A stretch of DNA of 64,000 nucleotides from a virus (taxonomy: Duplodnaviria; Caudoviricetes). The position numbers and the translations under genes were made by a program. The notes under the pieces were generated by a model. The model worked only from the letters and a program-made list of their open reading frames with translations. It did not search any database and had not been told where the DNA came from. The DNA lies in IMG/VR virus record IMGVR_UViG_2706795801_000001, positions 32,001 through 96,000 of that record; one strand, written 5' to 3'. This document shows, piece by piece, positions 14,952 through 62,273 of this stretch (positions are counted from its first letter, which is position 1; the number at the start of each line of letters is the position of its first letter).

Positions 14952-17541
14952 ATGAGTGAAAAAACTTTATTTTCTCCAGCATCCCCTAAACAGGCGTTGA
15001 TGTTAAAGAGGGCAAGTGATACACAGATAGTTGTGATCGGTGGCGCTGCAGGTTCTGGAAAGTCCCATATTCTTAACCACTTACCCCTTCTTGTAGTTGA
15101 CGACCCTAGGACAAACTGTATTATGTACCGTAGGACTAACCCTCAACTAGAAGGTGGTTTGTGGCCTAACGGACGTAAGATTTGGGCAGAAATGCCAGAT
15201 TGGGTACCAAAAGAATATAAACCCAAGAATATCAGGGAGAAGGTTAAAGAAGTTATCCTTTATAACGGAGCTAAGATTAAATACAATCAGGCAGAAAATA
15301 CCTCTAGAGCTAAGGATGACGCCCAAGGACAGGAATTTACCTTAGTTTGTATTGACGAAGCAACACAACATGACTGGGAATTTATAGAATACTTAATGTC
15401 TCGTTTACGGTCGCCATCTAAGCATTTCTCAAGAATGGTGATGAGTTGTAACCCCGACCCAGATCATAAACTAAGGCAAATTATTGACTGGTACTTGGAT
15501 GAAGAAGGATACCCCGATCCAGATAAGGATGGAGTACAGAGGTATTTTATTACCCTTGATGGGGAGTTCCAATGGGGGAATACCAAAGCTGAATTAGGGG
15601 AGAGGTTCGATATACCCGAAAAAGACTGGGAAAGTAAAATATTATCCTTCGCGTTTGTCAGCGGGACTATTTACGATAACCCCCCCATGATGGTTTTGAA
15701 TCCACAGTACCTAGCTTTTCTTGAAGGCTTAAATGATATTGATAAAGCTCAACTGTTACACGGTTATCTAGTAGCCGCTTCATTCGTAATGGAATGTCGA
15801 TAATTTTGTTAATTGCTGGGAAATCTTTACACCTATTAGTTGCTATAGAATAAAGTATATAATTTGGCTATAGGTTTAGATAATCAGCACCTAAGGTATT
15901 ACCACCCAGAATAAAGTAAGGAAAATTATGAAAAATCTTAAAAGTTTAAATGCATCAAATTACTGTTTAACCCCTTGTGGTAAACTCTATTCCTTAAGAG
16001 TCAATAGTTTCATGGATGGTTGGGTAGTTGGTGGTTACCTGAAATACTCAATAACCTTCGATGATAGTTCTCATAAAGAAATGTTTGCTCACAGACTTGT
16101 GGCAATTGCTTATCTGGGAGGAGAAGATTCAAATAGGATTTTTGTGAACCATATAGACGGTAACACACTAAATAACCATAAAGATAATCTAGAGTGGGTA
16201 ACTCCGTCTGAGAACAACTTTCACGCTTATGAGACAAACCTTTCTGTTGGAAAAAAACATCACGTAGAAGGTCTAGAGTATCTTAAAGGTATATACAATG
16301 AAAGTTGTGATTATAAGAACCTCACAGAAGAGGATGTGCATCAAATATGTAAGCTCCTTGTTGCAGGCTATAGGGACGTGGATATAAGTCGTATGACTAA
16401 CTTACCCAGAAGGACAATAAACCACATACGTCATAAGGATCTTACCTTGTTTCCAAAGATTGTAGAACAATACTCGTTCTCTTTCACAAAAGAAGATCGG
16501 ATGTCACCAGAACAGGTAGTTCAAATATGTGAGATGTTACAGTGTGGGTGGAAAGTTATGGAATTATCTAGACATTTAGGGTTAAACAGGAAAAAAGTAG
16601 GTAATATTAAGAGTAGGAAGACCTTCCTTGATATATCTAAAGCATATAATTGGTAATACAAAGATCAACGACTAACCCTGACGGGTGTACGCTGTAAGCT
16701 TAAAGCAGTGGAAATACAAAACACCTAAGTAAATTTATATTTAGGTGAAGATATAGTCTAGACTGTATGGTGACATATAGAAGTTCATAAGAGAACTGAG
16801 TGTGATTTGCGAACTCACTTGAATAATACGAACTGGAATGCACGTGCTAAGGGGGCCAACTATCTACTTTCTGGATGGTTTCAAGAGGTTGATAGGATAC
16901 CTTCTGGTGGTGTAATGGCAAGAGGTTATGATTTAGCTGCCACTGAAAGGAGTCAAGTCAATAAACACCCTGATGCCACTACATCATGTAAAATGTTGAA
17001 ACATGAGGGGTATTACTACATTATTGGTAATTATCACGAAAGTTTTTATGATGATGTTGAAGATGTCTACGGGAGGGTATGTAAAAGGGTTGGTGATAGA
17101 GATAATGTAATGTTGTCTCAGGCGAAACTAGATGGAGATGAATGTACCATTGTTCTTCCCGTAGATCCAGCTTCTGCTGGTAAACAGGTGTATTTAGAGA
17201 TGTCTAAGTTTTTTACTGGTAATGGGTTTAGAGTTAAGAAAGACCCAGTAGCTGGTAATAAATCAAAACTTACTAGGTTCTTACCTTTTGCCACTGCAGC
17301 AGAGAATGGTTTAGTTAAGATAGTAAGGAACACTTTTGACGACAAAACTTATTTATGGATAATGAAAGAATTGGAAGCCTTTAACGGGGAAAGGTCAACT
17401 TCTACAAAAAAAGATGATTTTCCAGACTGTATTTCTACAGTTTTCAACTACTTATGTACCGCAAGGTCTAACAAAGCCTTCACCTTACCTACAATTGATT
17501 CTCCTTCTCTCCTATCTCACCATAAGTCGAGAATTAAATAA
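14952..17541 (+). CDS. terL: Terminase large subunit, spliced (exons 14952-15764 and 16831-17541; ~507 aa)
   Basis: GGAAGSGKS, IDEATQ, SCNPD in exon 1; splice restores LLHG|NWNAR; GYDLAAT and KKDDFPD nuclease motifs in exon 2. Confidence 0.93.
15765..16830 (+). mobile_element. Group I intron (IA-type) in terL with HNH ORF in P6
   Basis: P1 CGGT/GCCG with U-G pair; AATTGCTGGGAA, AATCAGCA, CAACGACTA, AAGATATAGTC core; omega-G 16830; in-frame ligation. Confidence 0.92.
15928..16656 (+). CDS. Intron-encoded HNH homing endonuclease with C-terminal HTH repeats
   Basis: AHRLVA...VNHIDGNTLNNHKDNLEWVTPSEN. Confidence 0.92.
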   Translation: MKNLKSLNASNYCLTPCGKLYSLRVNSFMDGWVVGGYLKYSITFDDSSHKEMFAHRLVAIAYLGGEDSNRIFVNHIDGNTLNNHKDNLEWVTPSENNFHAYETNLSVGKKHHVEGLEYLKGIYNESCDYKNLTEEDVHQICKLLVAGYRDVDISRMTNLPRRTINHIRHKDLTLFPKIVEQYSFSFTKEDRMSPEQVVQICEMLQCGWKVMELSRHLGLNRKKVGNIKSRKTFLDISKAYNW

Positions 17542-57115: not shown

Positions 57116-57646
57116 ATGAGATACACAAGTACATTAATAAGCAAAACAATCAAAGGTGTTGATGGTGTTGAGCGTCTATACAAAGCACGTAAGATATCTG
57201 CAATTTGGGCAAGTAAGGAATGCTTCAAGTTAGCTAAGGTTTTAATACCTGCAGGTGGCGCAGCAGTAGACGCTGTTATGGATAAGAAAGAACGAGATGA
57301 CCTACTATTAGACCCAGTGAGTTCTACATTCGGATCGATGCTATCAATGTTTACTTCTCATGTAGAAGATGAACATTGGGATGACCTGAGTCGTAAGTTA
57401 TTAGGAAGCCTACAGTTAGGTGACAAAGAAATAACAGATTTAGATGACCACTTTGACAACTACCAAGGTGATTACTTTGAAGTATTAATCTGGTTGTTCA
57501 CGGAGAACTTTAAGGATTTTTTCTTCAGCAACGTTATGTTTCGTTCTTTGATAGACAAGATGTTGGCGTTGCTGAGTCCAGAAATGAAAAGTACAATCGA
57601 GAACTTAAAGAAAGATTTACTAAACGAAACCAATATGCAGTCTTAG
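57116..57646 (+). CDS. Tail assembly chaperone (G)
   Basis: Between tube and TMP; DDHF...ENFKDFF. Confidence 0.85.
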   Translation: MRYTSTLISKTIKGVDGVERLYKARKISAIWASKECFKLAKVLIPAGGAAVDAVMDKKERDDLLLDPVSSTFGSMLSMFTSHVEDEHWDDLSRKLLGSLQLGDKEITDLDDHFDNYQGDYFEVLIWLFTENFKDFFFSNVMFRSLIDKMLALLSPEMKSTIENLKKDLLNETNMQS

Positions 57647-57882
57647 ACTACGTAACGTCATCCTCAGATAGAAATGATATGGATGTAGAGGGTTGGTTCT
57701 TCAATGTAGCCAACTCTGAGTTTTGTTGTGATAGTTTAAGTTACATTAGAAATGAAATGACATTGGGTGAATTTTTAGAGTTAGACTTCCAGATTGCATA
57801 TTACAATGATCTTAAACGTGCAGTGGAACTAGACCAGAAAGTTCAAGAAGAGAAAGACAACATGAACAGAGGTAACAGGTAG
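57116..57882 (+). CDS. Tail assembly chaperone GT via -1 frameshift at T TTT TTC (57517-57523)
   Basis: -1 frame is open from the slippery site through track ORF 57679..57882. Confidence 0.8.
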
Positions 57883-57889
57883 AGGTCAT

Positions 57890-60800
57890 ATGTCAGAAGA
57901 AATCACCAAGTATGTAGTGGAGGCAGAATTTGATTCCGCTAAAGCTACAAAAAAGTTGGATGAGTTTAATAAGAAATTAACGTCTTATTCCAAAGCTCAG
58001 AACAACTTTAGAAAGAATAAAATGGGTATGCAGAGGGTTCTAGATAATACCAGAAAGCATAAGATGCTAACGGATGTTGTTAAGACGCCTCAGATAGCTA
58101 AATTGAAACCTCCAACATCACCAGTTAATAGATTAGAAACACTATCAGGTAAAGAGAAGGTACTACCTAACCTATATAAGTATAGTGAGGCTTCTTTAAA
58201 ACGACAAAGTGAATACTTAGATAAGATTAAAGATAAGAAGGTGAAACTATCTTATGTTAATAATCTAAATAAACAAGAGCGAAAGGTCAAGTTAGATAAC
58301 AAAATCCCCTCAAGACAGAAGGTAGCTGTTAGTGTCAAAACTAAAACCCCTACCAAACGTTTAGAGTCTAAGACTTCCAAAGTAAAACCTGTACCAACCT
58401 TAGACAGAAAAATAAGGATACTTAGTAAGGTAAAAGATAGTAGGGTTAACGAGAAAGACCAACCCAAACCTAGTAGATTACAAACACTAAAATCTAAAGA
58501 GAAACTATACCCAAACCTATATAAGTATAGTGAAGATTCTCTTAAGCGGCAAAGTGAATACCTAGCTAAGTTAAAAGATAAGAAGGTTAAATTAGATTTC
58601 ATCGACAATCTTGACAAGGTAAAGAAGAGATTAAAATCCTTAAATAGACAAAAGACTAGGGAAGTGCCTGATAAGATTAGTAAAGTAGTGGGTTCAGATA
58701 AGAAACCTTTACAGAAAATCAATACTATCAAGGAAAAGGTGGTCAAAGTAGGTAAATCCCCTAAACAGCCTATGCTAAATGCCCATCACAAGGAACGTGA
58801 GAAGTATTTAAATAAAGAGTACAAGAACAAGGTTAACAGGGAAAGGAGTTTAAAGTCTGCACACATCTTGGCTATCAAAGAAAACATTAAGTTTGATAGG
58901 AAAGCAGCAGAAGCTAAACGAAGCGAAGCAAGTAAACCAGATGGTATGGATACTCATCTTAAACAACGTGAGAAGTATTTAGATAAACAATACAAGAAAC
59001 AGTTAAGTCGAACTAAAGAGTTAAAAGCGGCACATGTAGCTGCTATTAAACAGAATATTAAGTTTGACAGACAACGGAAGATGGCTGCTGCTAAGGTTAA
59101 ACAACCTGCTATTATGAAACCTGCTGATGCTCATGTGAAAGCTAGAGAGGCTAGTATAGTTCAAGCTAATAGAAAGGAAACTCGTAGGAAGTCTAATCTA
59201 GGAGTCGCCAAAACATCATTTGATAGGTCTGACTTAAACCTAACTCAATATACTGACGCAAGACAACTTGCAGCACAAGCAGCACTGAGGGAGTCTATAG
59301 CGCAAGCTAAGACTGCTGATGAAGTCAAGATGATAGTTGCAACAGAACATAAACGCCTAAGAGTAATGAAGCAGAATGAGCGCTCTATGGGTAAGCAGAA
59401 CTACCTGATGCAACGTATGAACGCATCCAGTAAACAGTTTACAAGTAACATGTTCTCTGCATTCGCCATAGCTGGTGCTGGTGCTGGTATTACTAGAATA
59501 GGACAAGACTTCGAAGCAGTAAATAACACCATGTTGGCAGTAAGTACTAATACGCAAGAAGCAGGATCTAACTTTAAGTTTGTTAGAGATGAAGCTTATA
59601 GGTTAGGACTAGGACTTGCAAACAGTGGTAAGAACTTTGCTAAGATGTTATCTGCCAGAGGTAATATGAGCCTAGAGGATACAAAGAAAGCCTTCACAGG
59701 TATTTCAGAAATGTCTACATTGTTGGGGTTAAGTGCAGAAGAAAGTACAAGAGCTAAAGTTTGTGGCTCCTTTTAATAGTAATGTTAAATGTAAAATCTT
59801 TTTAATTGCTGGGACACCCACTTTATGGTGGACAATCAGCAGGGACGTTAACGTAAGTTAACACCTTCAGAGACTAACCCGTTAGGGTGTAGATTCTACT
59901 TAGAATCGAAAATAAGAAATCCTTTTAGGATTAAGATATAGTCCACAGACAAACGCTTTACAACAAATAAATCATTGTTTGGCTTCATAGAAATGTGATG
60001 AATAATTAAATTTATGAATTCGGTGGATCTCCTAAATGGAAGTAGGACAATACCGAGCGAAGCCTCGAAAGAGGAACGTGTAAAGACTAACTCGTAAGAG
60101 TGTAGGGGACGATACTATATCCTCGAAGCGTAAATAACCTGAACATTAAGTTGAAGGTTAAGATATAGTCTGAACTTCTATAGTAATATAGAGCGTATAA
60201 TACGGAGTAAGTCATTGATTTACTTAACAATTTTGGATGAGTAAAGGAGTTGTATCGGCTAAATCCTTGGCCTTTTAACTAGCGATAGTTATCAATAATT
60301 CATTTAATTGCTGGAACCTCTCATATGAGACAATCAGCAGGGAAGACTACTCGTAGTAACCTCCAACGACCAACCGTTATCGGTGTAGATTCTAAGTAGA
60401 GTCGAAACAGTGAAAACCTCTAAGGAGGTTATGATATGGTCTAGCCCTATAGTGATATAGGTTATATCTAAAGACTTTGATATAGTGACTCTTAACGTAA
60501 GTCATTGATTTAACTAGAGGAATTAAAGCTTCAAATGGGTAAACTTTGCCCAGTATAAAATTATTTAATTGCGAGAAGCCTTAATGCTTGTGACAGATGA
60601 TGTATTTATGGTATCATTGTTGCAGGTGAGATGGTAATTCGCAGGGAAGACCCACCACCTCAAAAGAGGAGTGTGTTGATATTATGAAAGCTATAGAAGA
60701 ATTTCCAAATTACTTTATTGATGAAAGCGGTAATGTGTTTAATAGTAGAGGGGTTCCAATTAAATCCCAATTAAATATAGATGGTTATAGGGTAGTAAAC

Positions 60801-62273
60801 TTATATTCAAACAAAAAATATTATCATAGACGATGTGCTAGGATGGTAGGTTTGACACATCTAAAAGACACATATGAAGAAGGTTATGTAATAAATCATA
60901 AAGATTTTGACAGAACCAACGACCAAATATCAAATCTTGAATGGATAACATCCCTAGAAAATAACTTGCATTCCATAGAAGGACAACCCCACCTACACAC
61001 AAGGGGATCTAAATATGACGAAGATTTTATAAGAGGTGTTTGCCAGATGATCCAAGATAATAAAAACAATAAGTATATCATGGAACAAACCAAGGTAACA
61101 AAAGATACACTATTACACTTACGTTGTGGTGCCACTTGGACTTGGATATCTAAAGATTATATATTGACTCCTTCAAAAAGAGAATGGTGAGTAACCTCCA
61201 GAGACTAACCCTAACGGGTGTAGGCACGAGTGTGTCGAAATGGTAATCACATTTATGTGAAGATATAGTCCGATACCCAATGAAAATTGGGATATAACTC
61301 TTAACGTAAGTTATTGAAAACATTAAAGGAAGTTTTGCCCAACGCCATACAAATTATGGCAAAATCCGCCCAAGACGCAGGTCTAACATTAGATGGTACT
61401 GTAAAATCTATGATGGACTTACAGCAAAAAGGTGGTTTAATATCTGAAAAGGTATTACCTCATTTTGCTAAAAATATGTCAGAGGCTGCTCGTGCTAACG
61501 GTGGTTTAGATAAGGCTTTATTATCTAACCGTGTTGCAATGAACAGGTTCATGTTCTCTATACAAGAAGCTGCTGATATTGTATTCAAGTCTGGATTCGC
61601 TTCTGGGCTGACAGAGTTGTTCAATACAATGGCTGAATCTATTGTAGACTTAAAACCCTTATGGGAATCTTTAGGCACAATAATGGGTTCATTGTTTAGG
61701 TTAATTGCAGACGGTGTTAAATATATTACTCCACCACTTATTTCTATGGGTAATGTACTAAAATCTATTACCTCAGCTTTAGGTGACAACTACTCTTGGT
61801 TACTATTGACCTCATCTGGTGCAATGGTACTATATAGAACCATAGATAAATTAGGTGGTCTTAAGTTCTTTGCAATGAGAACACTGCCAATGGTTGGTTT
61901 ATTAGTCATGGCGTTAGACGCAATCAAGCAAGTAGCTTTTTGGGCAGAAGAGTTAGACAATTTATTATTTTCTAGAAATAAGATAGGTGTATTATATGAT
62001 CCTAGGACTGGTGTGAATACAGACTCAGTTATAGATGAATTAATACCACTATTGACCTCTATCAGTTCAATAAAAAATCAAGTCAACGCTGTGTCTTCTG
62101 GTAATATGATGGGTGGTGCTAAAGGTTTAGAGGCATTATTTAATGCAAATAATAAACCTGTTACGGTGAAAGGTAACGTATATATTGGAGAGGAAAAGGT
62201 TGGTGACATAATGGCTAACAACTCTGCAATTAAAGATACTATCCAAGCTGAAATAAAGAAAATACAAAACTAA
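57890..62273 (+). CDS. Tape measure protein, spliced from 5 exons (57890-59755, 59949-59968, 60236-60260, 60517-60540, 61329-62273; ~959 aa)
   Basis: Ligation restores ...EESTRA|TNALQQM|MSKGVVSA|EELKLQMG|EVLPNAIQIMA..., the conserved tape-measure motif. Confidence 0.9.
59756..59948 (+). mobile_element. Group I intron TMP-I1 (193 nt, no ORF, no P9)
   Basis: P1 GAGCT/GGCTC, P10 GTTTGT/ACAAAC, AATTGCTGGGA, AATCAGCAGG, GAGACTA/TAGTCC, then ACAG. Confidence 0.85.
59969..60235 (+). mobile_element. Group I intron TMP-I2 (267 nt, no ORF)
   Basis: P1 CAAAT/GTTTG, P10 TCATT/GATGA, AATTCGGTGG, AATACCGAGC, AAGACTA/TAGTCT, omega-G. Confidence 0.88.
60261..60516 (+). mobile_element. Group I intron TMP-I3 (256 nt, no ORF, apparent omega-A)
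   Basis: P1 GGCT/GGCC, P10 TCCTT/GAGGA, AATTGCTGGAA, AATCAGCAGG, ACGACCA/TGGTCT. Confidence 0.82.
60541..61328 (+). mobile_element. Group I intron TMP-I4 (788 nt) with HNH ORF in P6
   Basis: P1 TGGGT/GCCCA, P10 AACTTT/GAAGTT, AATTGCGAGAA, AATTCGCAGG, GAGACTA/TAGTCC, omega-G 61328. Confidence 0.9.
60684..61190 (+). CDS. Intron-encoded HNH homing endonuclease
   Basis: YFIDESGNV, DGYRVVNL, VINHKDFDRTNDQISNLEWITSLEN. Confidence 0.9.
   Translation: MKAIEEFPNYFIDESGNVFNSRGVPIKSQLNIDGYRVVNLYSNKKYYHRRCARMVGLTHLKDTYEEGYVINHKDFDRTNDQISNLEWITSLENNLHSIEGQPHLHTRGSKYDEDFIRGVCQMIQDNKNNKYIMEQTKVTKDTLLHLRCGATWTWISKDYILTPSKREW

Follow-up and report, generated by a model that had tools for sequence, protein, structure and literature searches.

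The locus described here raises the question of why a phage tape measure protein (TMP) gene should be interrupted by four group I introns in immediate succession, with nothing but micro-exons between them. The window, a stretch of 64,000 nucleotides of viral DNA, is part of a complete phage genome of 133,824 bp. The array was best explained as a homing hotspot in the TMP gene of ICP1-like marine myoviruses, and a probability of about 0.85 was given to this reading.

The tail genes in the window were 99% identical to those of Shewanella phage 1/40, a phage from Baltic Sea ice, and further relatives included Vibrio phages 11895-B1, RYC, HNL01 and ICP1. Genes for tRNA-Arg and tRNA-Gly were present in the phage genome, and both are also described for Shewanella phage 1/4 (PMC9963407). 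The window phage was assigned to the ICP1-like Shewanella myoviruses and is probably Shewanella phage 1/4.

The interrupted gene lies in a myovirus tail operon with the order sheath, tube-like gene, tail assembly chaperone (TAC), tape measure and Dit-like gene, so that TAC and sheath are found upstream of it and the Dit-like gene downstream. Both halves of the gene matched PHROG TMP families, and the intron-less homologue L025 passed the cut-offs for TIGR02675 (tape_meas_nterm) and PF20155 (TMP_3).

A sequence-only reading had placed four introns and three micro-exons at 59756-61328, and these coordinates proved exact (Table 1). It had missed the A end of intron 3, the lack of P9 in intron 1 and the HNH gene of intron 4.

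Table 1. Features of the tape measure gene and its intron array in the window; site numbers give the distance in exon nucleotides from the first insertion site.
Feature	Position	Strand	Description
Tape measure protein gene, exon 1	57890..59755	+	622 codons; PHROG TMP families, operon context
Intron 1 (site 0)	59756..59948	+	193 nt, group IA2-type, ORF-less; P1-P8 with P7.1/P7.2, without P9
Exon 2	59949..59968	+	20 nt
Intron 2 (site +20)	59969..60235	+	267 nt, canonical group IA2-type, ORF-less, omega-G
Exon 3	60236..60260	+	25 nt
Intron 3 (site +45)	60261..60516	+	256 nt, group IA2-type, without ORF; last base predicted to be A (60516)
Exon 4	60517..60540	+	24 nt, or 21 nt with the G at 60519 as 3' splice site
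Intron 4 (site +69)	60541..61328	+	788 nt, group IA2-type, omega-G; homing-endonuclease gene in P6a loop
HNH putative homing endonuclease	60684..61190	+	168 aa, NUMOD4/HNH_3-type, inside intron 4 (P6a loop)
Tape measure protein gene, exon 5	61329..62273	+	314 codons and stop; PHROG TMP families

Introns 1, 2 and 3 matched Rfam model RF00028 with 58, 78 and 69 bits, respectively, above the gathering score, and intron 4 was recovered as two sub-threshold pieces (E 0.02 and 3.7e-7) flanking the HNH ORF. The IA2 label refers to the insert of 32–37 nt between P7 and P3 in introns 1–3, in which the P7.1/P7.2 hairpins were recognized by eye. The HNH ORF itself matched PF13392 (E 1e-7) and phrog_59, and its Shine-Dalgarno sequence falls inside a small hairpin predicted by folding (60658–60669). 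In the tree of intron cores, intron 4 grouped with the ORF-less intron at the same site of L033 (support 100/99).

The splice helices expected from the earlier reading, a P1 ending in U-G and an in-register P10, were found in all four introns. The 5' exon ends in a U paired to G in a P1 of 4–5 bp (5 bp in introns 1, 2 and 4), and P10 comprises 5–7 leading pairs, with lengths of 6, 5 and 7 bp in introns 1, 2 and 4, and is supported by compensatory changes. The G-C guanosine-binding pair of P7 was likewise present in all four, as judged from the sequence and the alignments.

A terminal omega-G and a P9 domain are usually treated as required features of group I introns. The P9 domain was present in introns 2–4 and absent from intron 1, and the terminal omega-G was present in introns 1, 2 and 4 but not in intron 3 in its best register. 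Introns 2 and 4 are canonical, and introns 1 and 3 are atypical variants, each failing one near-universal feature; the two atypical introns should work like group I ribozymes.

Joining of the exons yielded a stop-free ORF (57890–62273) of 959 aa that reads RA-TNALQQM-MSKGVVSA-EELKLQMG-EVLPNA across the junctions, exactly as had been proposed. When it was aligned with intron-less TMP homologues, the same anchors were separated in ten of them by exactly 69 nt, which encode the same motif. Retention of any single intron truncates the protein at 628–650 aa, and the view that the complete protein can be made only after four splicing events within one conserved motif was upheld.

Databases annotate two separate ORFs at such loci. 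Pipelines extend exon 1 into intron 1 and call a protein of 628 aa, and exon 5 is a separate hypothetical protein in the annotation of sibling 1/40. This would agree with a gene that is not spliced at all, being either split into two proteins or broken, with the introns as relics. Against this, the splice helices are intact and show compensatory changes, and splicing restores the reading frame in all relatives, the spliced ORF being open at full length in 17 of 17 intron-bearing loci and, in 3 further loci, across the region of the junctions. The orthologous TMP transcript of ICP1 has moreover been proven to splice by RT-PCR and Sanger sequencing (PMC10448857).

Tail length points in the same direction. 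On a scale taken from ICP1 (677 aa, ~100 nm), a tail of 142 nm is predicted from 959 aa and one of 93 nm from the 628 aa of the unspliced gene. The tail of phage 1/4 measures ~135 nm (215 nm total minus 80 nm head; PMC9963407) and, if the window phage is indeed phage 1/4, fits the joined protein of 959 aa and not that of 628 aa. The probability left to an unspliced gene was close to negligible, and by analogy with ICP1 the four introns are expected to self-splice in this phage. The main importance of the array lies in annotation, as gene callers split these tape measures and produce wrong lengths and tail predictions throughout the clade.

The distribution of introns among relatives was part of the evidence for a homing hotspot. 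Altogether, 54 introns were located at nine sites within 89 nt in 20 intron-bearing loci, at positions 0, +20, +27, +45, +53, +64, +69, +84 and +89 counted from the first site of the window. Each intron-bearing phage carried 1–5 introns, in sets such as {0,20,45,69} in the window, {0,20,53} in 1/40, {45,53,69} in ICP1 (those of 1/40 and ICP1 being mapped by hand), {0,20,45,69,89} in L021, {0,20,27,45,53} in L032, {20,45,53,64,84} in Pseudoalteromonas phage H101 and {45} in Aeromonas phage phiA047. The smallest exons among these relatives measured 7–8 nt.

All nine sites fell within the best-conserved 30-aa window of the intron-less TMPs (0.88), and conserved stretches have been argued to be the usual target of mobile introns (PMC2504315). 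Long intron ORFs, as a rule one to an array, occurred at +27, +45, +53, +69 or +84; those named in the records are annotated as HNH. The comparative map, in which 89 nt hold nine sites, a gene carries as many as five introns and exons can be as short as 7 nt, offers a clean natural system for the study of intron crowding, co-conversion and splice order.

Intron cores clustered by insertion site. In a tree of 47 cores, 9 changes of site label were required, compared to 29.9 after shuffling. Sites 0, +20 and +27 each formed a single supported group. Sites +45, +53 and +69 did not form single clades; either some sites may have been invaded more than once, or the core tree does not resolve them.

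The same comparison bears on an origin of the array by local tandem duplication of one intron. Such an origin could be suspected from introns 1 and 3, which are locally more alike (score 87) than other pairs, and from short 3' motifs that recur in introns 2–4. However, each window intron was far closer to introns at the same site elsewhere than to its own neighbours, with similarity scores of 160–530 between same-site introns versus 25–87 between neighbouring ones, and the clustering by site extends across phages of different hosts. Recent tandem duplication is largely refuted by these sequence comparisons, a single intron may have moved to a neighbouring site in the distant past, and duplication as the source of the array was considered highly improbable.

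Evidence for recent exchange was obtained from sibling phage 1/40. Its exon 1 was identical to that of the window at 1849 of 1866 positions (99.1%) and its exon 5 at 939 of 945 (99.4%), and introns 1 and 2 were almost unchanged. Downstream of these, a single HNH intron at +53 replaces the +45 and +69 introns of the window, and seven exon differences are packed into 16 nt. Together, the intron swap and this cluster of differences bear the mark of gene conversion that recently replaced a block of sequence.

It had also been suggested that splicing of the array may be ordered or cooperative and serve as a switch that delays tape measure synthesis and times tail assembly. For such a domesticated timer it can be said that all four splicing events are needed for the full-length protein, and that a terminal A and a missing P9 are expected to slow splicing. 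That phage introns might act as on-switches is put forward, as a hypothesis, in PMC11878797. The suggestion of ordered splicing started from each micro-exon being shared by the P10 of one intron and the P1 of the next, but in this phage the two helices do not overlap. In its exons of 20–25 nt, P10 takes the first 5–7 nt and P1 the last 4–5, leaving at least 9 nt free, and since the two footprints are separate, no splice order is forced. Overlap of P10 and P1 applies instead to the 7–8-nt exons of the relatives ICP1, H101 and L032, and one 8-nt exon of H101 is fully claimed by both helices; it is around such very short exons, like the 8-nt exon of ICP1, that an order of splicing would be predicted.

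The pattern of gain and loss likewise speaks against a timer. Ten relatives are intron-less and others carry 1–5 introns in shifting sets, sibling 1/40 has exchanged half of the array, and HNH genes move between sites, as judged from the core tree and from PMC10448857, which also describes variable homing-endonuclease gene content in ICP1. With intron number ranging from 0 to 5 among relatives and differing between siblings that are 99% identical, an obligate order or timing switch was not sustained, and the timer was regarded as very unlikely, if slightly less so than duplication.

The homing hotspot remained the preferred reading, and the two atypical introns were considered within it. With an exon 4 of 24 nt, intron 3 would have to end at A60516 and not at a G. 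Among the 3' registers from −12 to +7, only −3, 0, +3 and +6 were open. Register 0 gave the best P10, with 7 of 8 pairs (guide 60264–60268), and was the only one in which both pairs of P9.0 (60443–60444 with 60514–60515) were Watson-Crick.

Intron 3 could nevertheless use a G within an array otherwise as described, either by splicing at G60519, which makes the protein one Glu shorter, or with exon 4 often being skipped. Such a G end would agree with the other introns, as 52 of 54 ended in G and only two in A (intron 3 and its counterpart in L021). The +3 register is also in frame, and skipping of exon 4 together with introns 3 and 4 keeps the frame and gives 951 aa; exon skipping is known in Twort orf142 and SIOphi. 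However, the +3 register provides only 2 leading P10 pairs and no P9.0, and the Glu that it deletes was kept in all intron-less homologues, none lacking it being found. The G at +1 of intron 3 is out of frame.

Introns at the same site elsewhere were also informative. At site +45, seven of the nine introns have a G as last base directly ahead of this exon start. Two of them, from phage 1.084.O and L023, can be aligned gap-free to the 3' end of intron 3, with their G standing on its A. The bases of the guide change together with the exon start among the site +45 introns, which counts against a G end as well. Two Watson-Crick P9.0 pairs in that register were found in only 1 of 42 omega-G introns scored, and this rarity suggests that the good P9.0 may compensate for the terminal A. 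Use of the A60516 junction is considered probable on these comparisons, and a G end for intron 3 or frequent skipping of exon 4 unlikely.

By established chemistry, an unchanged G-binding pair makes a terminal A a poor ligand. A search for an altered G pocket behind omega-A gave a negative result: intron 3 has a P7 variant that also occurs in the omega-G introns of ICP1 and L023. Sequencing error was ruled out as the source of the terminal A by the same end in the separate genome L021, whose intron 3 core differs from that of the window by ~0.19 changes per site. A pattern scan for further omega-A copies returned only L021, and a looser scan gave four unrelated chance matches; sibling 1/40 has no intron at +45 and is uninformative in this respect.

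A literature search of incomplete coverage yielded no paper on omega-A in bacteria or phages, nor one on splicing in phage 1/4. The ND5-717 intron of hexacoral mitochondria, an accepted exception to the omega-G rule, also ends in A, and its exons are joined exactly in vivo (PMC6545197). It is, however, an obligatory giant mitochondrial intron, in contrast to the short phage intron found here. As the same-site relatives of intron 3 mostly end in G, the change to A would be recent and open to comparison; if confirmed, it would provide a short intron of a cultured phage ending in A that can be tested against near relatives keeping G.

Intron 1 departs from the canonical structure at the other feature. 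Its omega-G lies 4 nt past the end of P7 (59944), and all five site-0 introns (181–194 nt) showed the same spacing and lacked P9. Four orthologues retain the 6-bp P10, with a single change that affects both sides of the helix; this alone is not significant (119 of 500 shuffles). From these alignments the 3' splice site of intron 1 appears well fixed. A pattern search of viral contigs found no P9-less introns outside site 0.

Loss of P9 has been termed very unusual, and P9 is likewise absent from the model of the Prasinoderma mitochondrial rnl intron (PMC3873408). That intron belongs to group IB, is spliced in trans and may lack a piece, whereas the site-0 intron is contiguous and acts in cis. 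Site-0 introns were always found upstream of a +20 intron (5 of 5 genomes, which are close kin and not independent), and +20 introns also occurred without a site-0 intron. As a lead only, this distribution is compatible with dependence on the neighbouring intron.

Carried further, the four introns could form a multi-ribozyme unit rather than act independently, with intron 1 borrowing stabilizing contacts from intron 2 and intron 3 being a natural group I ribozyme of the bacterial world that ligates accurately at A with an unchanged G pocket. The idea is speculative and rather doubtful; if it is true, both atypical ribozymes would belong to an essential gene of a phage that can be cultured, and canonical introns at the same sites in relatives would serve as controls. 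Introns 1 and 3 matter most to ribozyme specialists since, if confirmed, a P9-less intron and a terminal-A intron would test two features usually treated as required.

The following course of events is proposed for the hotspot. Separate group IA2 introns, each specific for its site, would have entered the 30 most conserved codons of the TMP gene on repeated occasions. Each would leave the late tail transcript by the two transesterifications typical of group I introns: free guanosine would attack at the U-G pair of P1, after which the exons would be joined on P10. Intron 1 would work without P9, and intron 3 would join its exons at the terminal A with the help of an exceptionally good P10 and P9.0. 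Removal of all four introns would give the 959-aa ruler. In mixed infections the putative HNH endonuclease of intron 4 may nick intron-less alleles, and repair would co-convert the nearby exon sequence and the ORF-less neighbouring introns, so that intron blocks could hitch-hike.

The sequence-only reading had located multi-intron phage genes mostly among those for DNA metabolism, lysins or terminases, but a structural gene with several introns has precedents in the ICP1 TMP, the TMPs of the Bacillus cereus group and Twort orf142. The closest is ICP1, whose TMP gene contains three introns proven by RT-PCR and four exons in this motif (Barth, Dunham & Seed 2023, PMC10448857); in the accessible part of that paper, the introns are neither classed nor mapped by site across relatives. 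The two phages share the orthologous gene and motif, an HNH_3 gene inside an intron and an intron in terL. By the mapping performed here, two of the three ICP1 sites (+45 and +69) are shared with the window, which adds introns at 0 and +20 and lacks that at +53, giving four introns versus three. The internal exons of ICP1 measure 8 and 16 nt in our reconstruction, compared to 20, 25 and 24 nt in the window, and its +45 intron ends in G where that of the window ends in A.

In the tail tube gene orf142 of phage Twort, three group I introns, a 23-nt exon and exon skipping have been described (as related in PMC10136302 and PMC11878797). It resembles the TMP gene of the window in being a late structural gene with IA2 introns and a micro-exon of the same size, and differs in gene and host; its introns I2 and I3 closely resemble one another, in contrast to the four divergent introns of the window. 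Prophage TMPs of the Bacillus cereus group also contain group I introns at several sites with a patchy distribution, namely three sites termed TMP-IVS1/2/3 (PMC2504315), but as described no more than two occur per gene, and the micro-exon array present in the window is absent. The array described here extends the published ICP1 case as a denser variant of it, and resembles both Twort orf142 and the TMP introns of the Bacillus cereus group.

Dense intron packing was also observed in the tape measure genes of relatives. The cultured Pseudoalteromonas phage H101 (locus L047) carries five group I introns, all unannotated, separated by exons of 25, 8, 11 and 20 nt. Counted in nucleotides from the first intron site of the window, sites +64 and +84 were occupied in H101 only among the mapped relatives. 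Its 8-nt exon is claimed in full by both P10 and the P1 of the following intron. An even shorter exon, 7 nt between sites +20 and +27, occurs in the arrays of two other related phage loci, L032 and L034; the five introns of L032 are separated by exons of 20, 7, 18 and 8 nt.

In the window's intron 3 (site +45), P9.0 can be extended to 5 bp, running through the terminal A into exon 4. In the minimum-energy fold, this extended helix competes against P7; it may represent a misfold or a switch. In a by-eye comparison with the same-site intron of related locus L021, the L9 tetraloop changes together with its receptor in P5: the window intron has GUGA and CU:AG, the L021 intron GUAA and CC:GG. Such covariation would be expected of a functional L9-P5 contact.

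Matches to the 13-nt IHF consensus numbered 11 genome-wide, two of them inside the window array. Across the 54 introns, 14 matches were found, compared with 3.5 after shuffling (shuffled maximum 11; not independent). All but one of the 14 are no more than about 30 nt away from a splice site, with both orientations represented. At 3′ intron ends the motif is a component of an RNA hairpin, so its presence may be coincidence.

The window tape measure protein is about 200–300 aa longer than those of complete relatives (634–747 aa), and its N-terminal part is Lys-rich and partly duplicated. The adjacent tail assembly chaperone pair is annotated in sibling phage 1/40 as a joined (frameshift-type) CDS. 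In Vibrio phage F88 (L014), a transposase gene lies immediately 5′ of a tape measure gene without introns.

Coordinates of the features (window unless a locus is given)
Feature	Position	Detail
H101 array	L047:3314-5803	
L032 array	L032:5484-7482	
Extended P9.0, intron 3	60440-60444 with 60514-60518	
Same-site intron	L021:5965-6222	
IHF-consensus 13-mers	60208-60220; 60498-60510	near intron ends
IHF-consensus 13-mers, relatives	L007, L034, L013, L029	start of +53 introns
IHF-consensus 13-mers, relatives	L005, L033	reverse orientation
Lys-rich tape measure part	57890-58800	
Chaperone pair	57116-57882	
F88 transposase region	L014:1038-2582	
Fifth group I intron (large terminase gene)	~15770-16830	
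HNH gene	15928-16656	242 aa; within terminase intron
Sixth group I intron	G000:C1:15993-16243	outside window; minus strand; 63.9 bits

Besides the four in the tape measure gene, this genome carries a fifth and a sixth group I intron. The fifth interrupts the large terminase gene, separating the Terminase_6N half from the Terminase_6C half; terL of the related Vibrio phage ICP1 is likewise spliced.
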